Below, in pieces: positions 16,581-42,241 of a DNA stretch of 50,734 nucleotides; the stretch's first letter is position 1, and every line of letters starts with the position of its first letter. The notes under the pieces are model-generated. The model was not told the DNA's origin. It ran no database searches and worked only from the letters and a program-made list of their open reading frames with translations. The DNA is from Cytophagales bacterium (lineage in GTDB: Bacteria > Bacteroidota > Bacteroidia > Cytophagales > Cyclobacteriaceae): the NCBI GenBank assembly GCA_038259985.1, contig JBBSOG010000001.1, forward strand, positions 1 to 50,734, given 5' to 3'. The translations under genes were made by a program, and so were the position numbers.

Positions 16581-16736
16581 GCGCTAAGGATATAAATAAG
16601 CTCAATAATTCTTGCTTGCCGTAAAACAAAAAATTACAAGAATCCGATCATTTTACCTTCACTTTCATTGCAAATCATCCCTGTACAAAATTCTTGTGCT
16701 GCCAGGGCATTATAAATGCCTGACTAAGATAAAAGC

Positions 16737-16860
16737 GCATAACATATGCGCTTTAGCGGGTAAAGCAGCTAATTTACTCGCCCTCTCTGACTTAAGTTAC
16801 TTTTTAACTTAAGCCTTTGGATAAGCCCCACTGCGGGAAGCTCGCTCGATGTTAGCCCTC
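16737..16860 (-). repeat. attC-like site A (3' boundary of the MntA-HepT cassette), degenerate
   Basis: On the minus strand it begins GGGCTAAC, overlapping the HepT stop codon, and ends GTTATGC. The ends share the inverted repeat TAACAT...ATGTTA. Confidence 0.5.
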
Positions 16861-17227
16861 GTTTCCCCTTTCTTGGTCTAGTAGGTTCTCCAATTGAATC
16901 TTGTTTTCTATTAGATGGTCTTCTGCAATTTCCCATAAAATCTGAGGATCAATGATATGATACTCATGGACTGCAAAGTTTCTAAGTCGCAGCGGCGAAC
17001 CGTCCGTACATCTGTCTCCAAGGTAGTTCTGAATACTTATCTTTAATTGATTTGGGTATCTGATTGGCTGCTTCTCCTATAATTTCATAGTTCCGAGTGA
17101 CTGCATCTATTACCATTTCGTTTTGCAAAAAATCTGCAAGTCCATCTACTGTATCCAAATACCTGATAATCTTATCTGTAGCTTCAATCATATCTTCTAT
17201 ATAAGCCAGATAGTCCCTCTTTTTCAT
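16852..17227 (-). pseudogene. HepT-like (DUF86, HEPN) RNase toxin, frameshifted by a 16-bp insertion
   Basis: MKKRDYLAYIEDM...DAVTRNYEIIGEAA...PWRQMYG, then a 16-nt insert (16987-17002), then in another frame LRNFAVHEYHIIDPQILWEIAEDHL...EG* (stop 16852-16854). Confidence 0.88.
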
Positions 17228-17514
17228 ATGTACTTGACTTGCGCTAATACGGCTTGTTTCCACTGTTTCCTCAATGATCTTTCGGTTACCAAATCAACCT
17301 TCCTGCCAATTAAAGATTCAAGATAGTCTTTCAGATCAAAGAATTTCCATCCAATCTTCTTATTAAAGCTCACTAAAATATCTACATCAGAATCAATGCT
17401 GTAGTTACCATTGGCAAATGATCCAAAATAACCAATTTGGTCAATACCAAATTCATCCTGCAAATAAGGCTTTGCTTCTTTGATTTTATTTTCTATCTCT
17501 AGTCGGGTTTCCAT
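17224..17514 (-). CDS. MntA-like minimal nucleotidyltransferase antitoxin
   Basis: GYFGSFANG...SDVDILV (GS-x10-DxD), LESLIGRKVDLVT; ATGA overlap with the HepT gene. Confidence 0.92.
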   Translation of the reverse strand: METRLEIENKIKEAKPYLQDEFGIDQIGYFGSFANGNYSIDSDVDILVSFNKKIGWKFFDLKDYLESLIGRKVDLVTERSLRKQWKQAVLAQVKYI

Positions 17515-17551
17515 ATTTTAAAATAGTTCTTTTTCTTATGGTTCCAATGAA

Positions 17552-17684
17552 GGCTAACGTTCTATGCAGCCATCAGGCCAACTTGTTTGCGTTTTGTCAT
17601 TCAATGAGCAACAATAGTGCTTGGAGAAACTAGCCTCCGAGTACGTTTCAAACAGGGCTGGCTACTGCATAGTGCTGGTGGTAA
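17552..17684 (-). repeat. attC-like site B between the two cassettes
   Basis: Minus strand: TTACCACCAGC-ACTATGCAG...CTGCATAG-AAC-GTTAGCC. Contains a perfect CTATGCAG/CTGCATAG inverted repeat and a further TGTTTG/CAAACA pair, and starts 3 nt after the upstream stop codon. Confidence 0.65.
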
Positions 17685-17687
17685 CTT

Positions 17688-18308
17688 TCATTCTCTATCG
17701 TCAGTCAATCTTTCAATTAAATCGGTAAGTTCTTCATCTTTTTTTGGGCCTGTATCAACATGCGAGAGGTAATTTTGTGTGTTGGGTGCCCAATCAAAAT
17801 ATGCCCCTACTTTCCGTATTTTCATTTCTTCCTCTTGATATTTTGTTAAGGTTAGTATTTGCTCAAATATTTTTATAGGGGCTTCATCAACAGATTCAGC
17901 ATAAATTTGCAGACGGTATTCTCCTGCTAGAAAACTATAGTTCGTACCATCTTTTGGCATATAAAAATGATGTGCACACACTACCCCATTCTTATTTACA
18001 AAAAGTCCGCTCCCCCTTACAGGTTCATGGTTGTTCTCTCTGTAAACCCAAACGTTAAAGTTTTGAACTGACTCACTTCTTTGCAATCGAATGTACATAT
18101 TCTGAACATACTTCCCTTTGTCAGACGTGCTGTACAGTAAAGTTCTGATGTATATTTTAGGTGGGCCTTTTCCTATCTGATCAGGTCCAAGTTAGATAGT
18201 AGTTGGCCTTGTCATTTTTATTATACCACTCTTTACTCTTGTCAGCCAAAATGTTAATCCTGAGATTACCAGTGCCAATGTTGATACAATAAACGCGATA
18301 TATTCCAT
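17688..18308 (-). pseudogene. Hypothetical membrane-anchored protein interrupted by an in-frame stop
   Basis: ATG at 18308 gives MEYIAFIVSTLALVISGLTFWLTRVKSG...PTTI*; the TAA at 18192-18194 is followed in the same frame by LGPDQIGKGPPKIYIRTLL..., which runs into the 136-aa ORF-track ORF. Confidence 0.75.
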
Positions 18309-18318
18309 TCTTTCTTAA

Positions 18319-18355
18319 TTACCGCTAACAACCTTATAAAATGCATTACGCATTT
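18319..18355 (-). other. attI-like or secondary insertion site at the 5' boundary of the cassette array
   Basis: Minus strand AAATGCGTAATGCATTTTATAAGGTTG|TTAGCGGTAA: a GTT core about 20 nt upstream of the first cassette ATG, with no long attC palindrome. Confidence 0.45.
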
Positions 18356-19037
18356 CATCCACAATACCTCTCCAATATACGATATAATGCCTTTTCATTT
18401 ACATTCAGGGTGACTTTGTGTGAAGATACTATAATTAGAGTTATATCCGTTTTGAATGTTTGCCAGCGTTTGTTTCCTCTCTGGCATCAGTACCTACACC
18501 CCAACTATTTGCCCTTAAAATTTACTATAAGCTAAGCCTACGGTCACTTTTCATTAGTGAAATGTCATCTTAGGGTAGCCCTACGTTCTTAGATCAAGTA
18601 CAAAATGTGTATGAAGGGTAGTTGCTAGGTCATTTTTCAGGTACTAAAAGGGTAGGCAGGGTAGGTCTAAGGTCAATTTTAGCGATGAAAAGTGACCTTA
18701 CAGGGCTTGCTTGTACCTACATTAAGTATAAAATGGGTGCTTCGTGTAATAAACACTCACTTTTTACTATCGTGATGTAAGGTGTATGTAGGGCAACGGT
18801 CATTTTTTCAATTGTTTTTTAACAGCTATACCCCCTCTACAGCCTGTTTTGAGCGATGGATTCACTACCGTAGCAAATAGTACGGATGCATGTTCTGTGC
18901 TCAATGAGGTTAGTATACATCATCTTTATAGCCGGAACACTTGATGTGAGGTATTGCATGGTGCTTATGGCTGTCAGCCTGGCTGAAGCAGGGCGATTTT
19001 CTAACGCTATTTATGGTATTTTTCCCAAAAAAGACCC

Positions 19038-19074: not shown

Positions 19075-19560
19075 ATGCTAAAGTTGTTCAGGTTTCTGTG
19101 GATATTGTCTGCCCTTGCTTACTTCGCCGTATTGCTGCTAGGTTATGCTTATCTGCCGGAAAGGGTGGGCATTCACGCCGATGCGGAAGGCATAGCCGAC
19201 CAGTTTGTTGAGAAGGAGACTTTTTTTTATGTGGGCTTGGGATTCTTTATCGTGTCCAACCTCCTGGGTTCTATCCTCTTGAGCGTGTTGACCGGCATCC
19301 CCGAAAGCGCTGGCTTCTACTTCAGGAGCGAAAGCTTTAAGGAGAATGTCACCTCCTGGTTTTGCTCGTTTATTGCCGTCATCAATGCCTTCCTGATCTG
19401 CGCGGTAACCTATATTTCGCTATTCAACAACCAGGGCAACTACCGGATTAGCCAGTTTAACTGGCTGATTTATGTTGCCCCTCTTTTGCTACTGGTCAAT
19501 ATGGTCTGGCTGGTCGTCATTATCGTCAAGCGTGCACAACCGGCTGAGGCTACCAGCTAA
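19075..19560 (+). CDS. Hypothetical 4-TM membrane protein (DUF1648-like N-terminus)
   Basis: Likely start MLKLFRFLW at 19075, downstream of the -7 box; YAYLPERVGIH resembles the DUF1648 LPxxIPxH motif. Confidence 0.7.
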   Translation: MLKLFRFLWILSALAYFAVLLLGYAYLPERVGIHADAEGIADQFVEKETFFYVGLGFFIVSNLLGSILLSVLTGIPESAGFYFRSESFKENVTSWFCSFIAVINAFLICAVTYISLFNNQGNYRISQFNWLIYVAPLLLLVNMVWLVVIIVKRAQPAEATS

Positions 19561-42086: not shown

Positions 42087-42241
42087 AATGTTCAATGCAG
42101 CAGCGCTGCCCCCGCCGTCAGGCCGTACTTGTTAGTGGTCTTACTTTCGTGTATCAATTCTCTGTCTTTGCGCGTTAGATAACCAATAGCGATTTAAACT
42201 GAATGGTGGCAGGGGCAGCCCCGCTGCACGATGTTGTGTAG
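42087..42241 (-). repeat. attC-like site D downstream of the solo lipoprotein cassette
   Basis: Minus strand: CTACACAAC-ATCG-TGCAGCGGGGCTGCCCCTGCCACCA...TGACGGCGGGGGCAGCGCTGCTGCA-TTGAACATT. A 25-bp imperfect inverted repeat whose ends resemble site B. Confidence 0.6.

Follow-up and report, generated by a model that had tools for sequence, protein, structure and literature searches.

A decayed two-cassette array behind an integrase-less dock: one locus of a widespread integron-like system in Bacteroidota

Results

Layout of the locus

The window analysed here is a stretch of 50,734 nucleotides from a Cytophagales bacterium (assembly GCA_038259985.1, contig JBBSOG010000001.1, positions 1 to 50,734). 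The named best matches of ORF1 and of the recombinase described below likewise point to Bacteroidota, probably Cytophagales. Between two host genes the window carries a foreign insert that reads on the minus strand: a promoter-plus-attI-like unit that we call a dock, an open reading frame (ORF1), and a toxin–antitoxin (TA) pair. In reading order, the features are as follows.

19075..19560, plus strand: flanking host gene with a weak DUF1648 match, outside the insert; start inferred from congeners
18516..18941, minus strand: non-coding repeat upstream of the dock; three genome copies, 82–86% identical, all with a dock and then an accessory gene behind them
18329..18480, minus strand: integrase-less dock, with a conserved leader, a predicted promoter and a degenerate attI-like end at G|TT (G at 18329); from held-out model matches and alignment to a recombinase-linked attI
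18372..18379, minus strand: predicted -7 promoter element TATATTGG (dock consensus TATCTTGG); motif prediction
18319..18329, minus strand: start core of cassette 1, GTTAGCGGTAA, read directly from the sequence; homology to locus L056 begins at 18329
17688..18308, minus strand: ORF1, 206 codons, interrupted by an in-frame TAA; 39 homologous loci
17549..17684, minus strand: site B, long (~125 bp) and attC-like, which closes cassette 1; end core 17684-17674, crossover G 17558; breakpoint in genome G138
17224..17514, minus strand: mntA-like nucleotidyltransferase antitoxin gene, 96 aa, intact; Pfam NTP_transf_2
16852..17227, minus strand: hepT-like ribonuclease toxin gene, frameshifted (homologues 119 aa); Pfam HepT-like
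about 16987..17002, minus strand: 16-nt insert within hepT, register ambiguous by 3 nt; near-identical 16-mer at three other genome positions
16851..16860, minus strand: end core of the TA cassette, GAGGGCTAAC, which includes the hepT stop; same or near-identical in two G138 copies
16743..16850, minus strand: body of site A, degenerate or hybrid; left arm like a normal site of genome G040, right arm unpaired with it
16658..16761, minus strand: tail repeat with a 10-bp hairpin around GTT; common to C81 (the end of another dock-headed array) and C16
15351..16580, minus strand: flanking host gene of the fatty-acid hydroxylase family (gene family match), outside the insert

An earlier note on this DNA had described the start and end cores and the genes between them, and all of these are present in the sequence. 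The end core of cassette 1, TTACCACCAGC at 17684-17674, is complementary to the start core GTTAGCGGTAA at 8 of 11 positions, and the end core of the TA cassette, GAGGGCTAAC, to its own start core at 9 of 10, exactly as counted there. Site B terminates in G|TTAGCCTTC, with the G at 17558. The cassette genes are co-oriented and AT-rich, again as described: their GC content is 0.35–0.38, compared with 0.47–0.48 in the flanking genes and 0.435 in the genome. ORF1 matched no Pfam or NCBIfam family, and the NCBIfam MntA score of the mntA-like gene is under the cut-off. The window locus has no integrase gene adjoining attI and array.

Both cassettes are broken. ORF1 is stopped by the TAA at 18194-18192, and hepT is frameshifted by the 16-nt insert; the two units that the earlier note recognised are real, and it overlooked both defects. 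The two defects are unchanged in an independent assembly (run X1 contigs). Run X1 probably comes from the source sample and hence provides no independent biological support for them. The 16-mer that disrupts hepT also occurs, with at most two mismatches, on contigs C282, C331 and C397 of this genome (G000), in two cases between short direct repeats. A small mobile element may have left it behind.

In six of seven congeners the flanking genes are adjacent, 146–269 bp apart and without cassettes, and in the seventh they have other neighbours; here they are about 2.5 kb apart. Syntenic retention of the cassette genes in relatives, which would have spoken against mobility, is therefore not what the congeners show. 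The insert of about 2.3 kb begins near 16658, reaches at least 18941 and consists of the tail repeat, the two cassettes, the dock and the upstream non-coding repeat. Hence, the array that had been delimited to 16737..18355 is real, and the foreign unit around it is larger (about 16658-18941). Since the whole insert is missing from the congeners, the dock itself must be foreign at this locus. An empty site joined at this G|TT, which one might have hoped to see in relatives, was not found at the orthologous locus of the congeners; they have no dock there altogether.

The three copies of the upstream non-coding repeat share no open frame. The repeat (18516-18941; G000 C270, C367; L051, L053) contains internal short repeats. 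In the complete congener G006 one weak copy adjoins a gene of a ~213-aa family described below, and a second is followed by a dock-like G|TT and then by an accessory gene.

Cassette boundaries

Copies of the two units elsewhere begin their homology exactly at the GTT cores, at 18329 and 17558, which bears out the claim that they are integron-like units. For ORF1 we found 39 homologous loci, and none of the 17 named Bacteroidota loci has the neighbours seen in the window. DNA homology to one of these loci, L056, runs from 18329 to 17672; at the other 16 it begins further inside. Paired cores were recognised by eye in 6 of the 17 Bacteroidota homologues.

The TA pair has five matches among 300 order-level genomes, and one of the five is cassette-bound. 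A family search yielded two TA copies in G138 (L149 and L150). Homology to L149 extends from 17558 to 16845, that is, from the crossover G to the end core, and the start core of L149 is complementary at 10 of 10 positions to the end core of both the window copy and L150. In L149 itself the end core is interrupted by a group II intron-like sequence. Group IIC-attC introns reportedly insert in the end core, as seen in L149.

In two arrays of relatives (L044 and L045, the only ones counted, by eye) start core and own end core pair at 9–10 of 10 positions in all 11 consecutive pairs. One relative's array contains a duplicated 205-aa cassette. Among the assembled contigs of one run we found no recombination joints. 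Both units of the window are mobile cassettes bounded at G|TT.

Two further observations concern cassette content. In two Gammaproteobacteria (L075 and L090) ORF1 homologues lie between GTT and what looks, by eye, like a canonical attC; this placement suggests that cargo may be exchanged with classical integrons. Several arrays contain group II introns, or genes for their reverse transcriptases, in antisense orientation (L149:2907-4294, L039:12104-13890, L041:2809-4089, L137:8708-9988).

The attC-like sites

We built a covariance model from 25 sites in arrays behind recombinases in relatives' genomes, with the window excluded. Compensatory changes occur in all 11 stem pairs of the alignment. 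In the stem 87% of the cells pair, compared with 50% in shuffles (0 of 500) and 32–42% in slid controls, a figure that is favoured by the structure having been derived from the same alignment. Site B is the sole strong match to this model in the window (44.6 bits, E 7.8e-10). The next best match reaches 9.8 bits; it lies at 42108-42215 on the minus strand (E 0.51), is partial, has neither core, and is possibly an old remnant. An initial de novo search for hairpins detected site B alone in the window and gave results too noisy to use elsewhere.

The palindromes do recur behind other accessory genes. In the genome at least 34 matches are listed, at least 27 of them at E<1e-4, and there are matches in at least four of five congeners and at least 60 of 120 other phylum genomes. 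Only part of the candidate sites was scored, which makes all of these numbers lower bounds. In arrays L039, L040 and L049, long sites alternate with a second, short class of about 52–63 bp; this class lies outside the long-site model, and the site counts are underestimates for this reason too. Long sites have 3 nt after AAC, 5–7 nt before GTT, and internal mismatches. These spacers differ from the R/L spacing of a classical attC.

When the circle junction of cassette 1 is modelled, the bottom strand folds into one hairpin that includes the cores (-21.9 kcal/mol, z -2.3); the top strand forms no such single hairpin (-17.6 kcal/mol, z -0.8). In linear form, site B is only slightly more stable than its shuffles (z -1.1 and -1.6). 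No Rfam family matches the sites: in the window there was just a chance snoRNA hit (E 1.3), and 52.7 kb of arrays yielded only group II intron domains.

The long-site family is conserved in structure rather than in sequence. This applies to the family and to site B; it does not apply to site A, which is degenerate or hybrid and not a well-formed attC. The long-site model misses the body of site A (there is only a partial 8-bit match on the opposite strand), and its arms do not pair as one stem. We also considered an inverted attC and rejected it, as a paired stem forms on neither strand. The 3' part, 16761-16658, is common to C81 and C16 straight across the G|TT, so this GTT is no breakpoint among those copies. 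The description of site A in the earlier note as an attC-like site with its core at G|TT is not confirmed. A terminator scan at site A found none.

Docks

The region upstream of first cassettes is a conserved unit of ~150 bp that consists of a leader, a TATCTTGG-type motif, a small hairpin and G|TT. The -7 promoter consensus of Bacteroidota is TAnnTTTG, and from this motif the dock is predicted to carry a promoter. A profile built from 18 genome copies, with the window left out, gave 28 matches at E<1e-3 on 26 contigs; 18 of these are the training copies, and the window dock is included as a held-out match (E 2.7e-5 genome-wide). A reversed-genome control gave no match. The nhmmer match to the window dock ended at 18365, and the attI part is divergent. 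With a second dock model, 18480-18321 is the sole match in the window (E 2.2e-7) and is aligned in register through GTT. A 75-nt attI profile missed the window attI (site D), which the full dock model found. The attI architecture that had been proposed is retained in the form of a G|TT attI-like end; the amendment is that this end belongs to a repeated dock, itself foreign here.

A long site lies within 3.5 kb downstream of 13 of the 28 docks in the genome, a figure that is circular in part, since a downstream long site was the criterion by which 10 seeds had been selected. G006, which was outside dock training, has 11 docks, 8 of them with a same-strand long site 0.4–3 kb downstream and 4 with 9–10/10 core pairing to the first gene (by eye). 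All 11 lie between 157 kb and 1.6 Mb from a family recombinase. Docks were detected in three of the five congeners searched. In 27 outside loci the dock model R2 found nothing at E<=0.5, although the tet(X3) and G138 sites among them can be recognised by alignment. Hence, this model lacks sensitivity beyond the genus, and its failure to find a dock at the locus in the congeners carries little weight.

A leader of ~100 bp, which differs from the recombinase 3' end, is common to the solo docks. In three of them the attI is identical or almost identical to the recombinase-linked attI; the attI of C16 and C181 is the same as that of C376, which links these docks to the C376 enzyme. At C382 the dock lies directly behind a broken recombinase gene. 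One orthologous position carries different gene sets in three species, and a dock was detected there only in this genome.

A gene family of ~213 aa, with 25 loci in the genome, often stands divergent from a dock at a distance of 0.5–0.8 kb (G000 C8, C16, C81, C181, C12, C116, C247, C546; L031:1256-1900; L064:214-858). It has no convincing Pfam match. The gene lies beside docks at 8 of the 25 paralogue loci, four of which were queries, and is absent at the window locus. It is a candidate carrier or partner of docks.

The recombinase

On another contig, C376, an intact 559-aa tyrosine recombinase, which is the genome's best match to an IntI and shows weak HARP matches, is followed by a co-directional attI, a gene and a long site. 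The earlier note had predicted that a tyrosine recombinase encoded elsewhere mobilises the array. C376 provides a candidate, and it is not an IntI: against the IntI model TIGR02249 it scores 224 bits, with the cut-off at 265. No protein in the genome scores above this cut-off; at 92% completeness and with 719 contigs, however, the assembly may lack an IntI that the genome has. The best PDB match of the C376 recombinase is the integron integrase 2a3v, with 21 versus 64 residues between the aligned blocks. The IntI-specific insertion (I2 domain, ~43 residues) is missing in all 12 aligned family members, and the catalytic R-K-H-R-H-Y columns are invariant in the family alignment. Against the XerC and XerD models the protein reaches 177 and 173 bits, compared with cut-offs of 330 and 335.

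Family recombinases match at E<=1e-40 in 19 of 30 relatives. Those inspected head co-oriented arrays and sit directly before attI and array, so that an integrase adjoining attI and array, absent from the locus studied here, is found for C376 and for the relatives' recombinases. Congeners have several recombinase copies. On a 15-kb Cytophagales plasmid (L137, NZ_CP111070.1) a family recombinase is followed by co-oriented genes and long sites, which shows that the system can be plasmid-borne.

Family members often have one to three HARP-like N-terminal modules, an assignment based on Pfam matches under the cut-off. Two array-heading recombinases of 280–289 aa are without HARP-like parts (L048:979-1848, L049:992-1834) and have a divergent small Cys-rich gene upstream. 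We considered that HARP replaces the IntI insertion, and set this idea aside in view of these two members and the sub-threshold scores. A palindrome that resembles an attI arm lies just upstream of the C376 recombinase start (compare L038:981-1038), and could be an autoregulatory binding site.

The tet(X3) unit

When we searched plasmids with the recombinase, we found 'xerD/tnpF' beside tet(X3), at 63% identity over 235 aa; this match recurs in at least 25 of the 30 matches listed, two of which we examined. In both (L135:2967-4988, NZ_CP104735.1; L136:4049-6190, FJ012881.1) a truncated recombinase is followed by an attI-like site, G|TT and tet(X3). The attI between 'xerD' and tet(X3) resembles that of C376 in alignment, and tet(X3) itself is followed by an end core (7/10, by eye), after which comes the left portion of a long site. 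The long-site and dock models did not score the truncated pieces, so that this reading rests on alignment. tet(X3) is likely a first cassette that this system captured together with its dock.

In the available text on the ISCR2-xerD(tnpF)-tet(X3)-res unit of Acinetobacter, the recombinase is called XerD and its role is left open, with no mention there of a cassette system (PMC8635130, PMC7473080, PMC11194056). The unit resembles the present system in its 63% identical recombinase, its attI, G|TT, end core and left long-site part. It differs in that recombinase gene and site are truncated, and it is moved by ISCR2, according to the same available text.

Discussion

The array at this locus is real but decayed, and it belongs to a widespread integron-like system. 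The observations of the earlier note are partly confirmed, and its interpretation is supported. Our main reading is that a two-cassette broken array lies behind an integrase-less dock, and that its cassettes were likely inserted by a remote, integron-like recombinase that lacks the IntI insertion, that is, loaded in trans. We put the probability of this reading at roughly 0.6. It builds on G|TT boundaries, self-pairing cores, co-varying hairpins, dispersed docks and the C376 unit, from which we infer loading in trans.

Under this reading, a cassette would leave as a circle with its two cores paired. The folded single strand (the bottom strand is predicted for cassette 1) would then recombine at G|TT with any dock. 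Newer cassettes would enter adjoining the promoter; hence the TA unit presumably came first and ORF1 second. The dock itself may have arrived at the locus inside the larger unit of ~2.3 kb.

The most serious alternative is that solo docks are remnants of cis-loaded units that lost their recombinase, similar to CALINs, and that no loading in trans takes place. Both window cassettes are broken, a broken recombinase gene lies directly before the dock at C382, congeners have several recombinase copies, and this alternative dispenses with the trans loading that we infer. We nevertheless regard it as unlikely, for the following reasons. First, the ~100-bp leader of the solo docks is not the recombinase 3' end. 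Second, there are 11 docks in one complete genome and over 20 here. Third, several docks stand beside the ~213-aa family (8 of 25 paralogue loci, 4 being queries). Fourth, three species differ in their genes at one orthologous position, although a dock was detected there only in this genome.

It is very unlikely that a canonical IntI, missing from the assembly or transient, acts on the sites and that the insertion-less recombinase is a bystander. The 92% completeness of the assembly leaves some room for this, and the ORF1 homologues beside a canonical-looking attC in L075 and L090 suggest that cargo crosses between systems. However, nothing in the genome exceeds the TIGR02249 cut-off, all 12 recombinases are without the insertion, those inspected stand directly before attI and array, and spacers of 3 nt and 5–7 nt are unlike a classical attC.

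More improbable still is an insertion of the attG type, at an arbitrary chromosomal G|TT with no dedicated site upstream. One study reports, in the portion available, that IntI also inserts cassettes at places other than att sites (10.1101/2022.09.11.507474), and the attI portion of the window dock is divergent. Yet the upstream 150 bp are a held-out dock match in register through GTT, and the congeners have no dock here; the match of the second dock model at 18480-18321 largely refutes this possibility. That the palindromes are terminators or REP-like repeats with chance core matches is the least credible option: the GTT of site A does lie in a terminator-like hairpin, of which a similar one stands alone in genome G005, and the z scores of linear site B are only weakly above shuffles, but it is refuted for sites B and D by breakpoints that are exact in two outside genomes, by cores that pair across genes, by covariation and by the duplicated 205-aa cassette, and may hold for the 3' part of site A.

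How does the system that we favour, with its dispersed docks, compare with known ones? With integrons it shares the G|TT crossover, self-pairing cores, cassettes of one orientation in which each gene is followed by a hairpin conserved in structure, TA cargo, group II introns within arrays, and a recombinase whose nearest structure is 2a3v (VchIntIA). It differs in a recombinase that is ~43 residues shorter at the IntI insertion (TIGR02249 224 versus 265), in the one to three HARP-like N-terminal modules that are often present, in asymmetric spacers, and in the many promoter-attI docks per genome. It works like an integron, but the IntI insertion was looked for and is absent, and we therefore do not file it as one. 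As in integrons of the Treponema type, to go by the available part of their description, the recombinase gene is transcribed towards the cassettes (PMC3607928).

Cassettes far from an integrase gene are also known as CALINs and SALINs, that is, attC clusters or single sites without an integrase, as far as the sources are available (PMC9024848, 10.1101/2022.09.11.507474). The window locus has one good attC (site B), one degenerate one (site A) and no integrase. It differs from CALINs and SALINs in that the array keeps a genome-repeated unit of predicted promoter and attI-like dock, not a bare attC or attG; its upstream region matches the dock family, which separates it from an attG-linked SALIN. 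XerCD/IMEX elements such as CTXphi likewise use a recombinase without an I2 domain on a folded single strand, in the available text (PMC4792948). In contrast to these, the enzyme here is dedicated and stands beside its own attI, the arrays consist of unrelated genes, and the scores are far below the XerC/XerD cut-offs. Our literature search, which covered mostly openly accessible papers, found no published description of this insertion-less recombinase and its docks.

In Riemerella anatipestifer a homology-independent insertion of aph(3')-IVb has been described (PMC13148043). According to the available text, this Bacteroidota gene moves together with 27 bp of upstream sequence and an attC-like stem-loop of 140 bp and needs no homologous flanks, and these sizes match our cassettes; the same text names neither an enzyme nor an attI. 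By analogy, the 140-bp stem-loop segment would belong to the present system.

One could go further and propose that Bacteroidota have a distributed second kind of integron. In each genome a single insertion-less recombinase would act on ten to thirty dispersed docks of promoter plus attI; the docks themselves would spread, and their cassettes would be loaded in trans. This would explain the uptake in Riemerella as well as the capture of tet(X3) before ISCR2 took tet(X3) and its dock into Acinetobacter. We consider the chances of this wider proposal to be about even.

Surveys report very few integrons in the phylum, yet the long-site family occurs in at least 60 of 120 sampled phylum genomes. 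In the parts of the surveys that are available, IntegronFinder is described as naming one complete integron for Bacteroidetes proper (PMC9024848) and none in Elizabethkingia anophelis (PMC11523902). A site model of the kind used here would flag mobile accessory genes of Bacteroidota that present tools overlook. The locus itself is a decayed example; its value lies in showing an integrase-less dock with exact cassette breakpoints. The system makes two questions testable, as far as the available reports describe them: the Riemerella insertion without homology (PMC13148043) and the role of the 'xerD' beside tet(X) (PMC7473080). If the recombinase acts on folded sites without I2, it would be a natural intermediate in the transition from Xer to IntI that has been proposed, to judge from the accessible text (PMC4792948).
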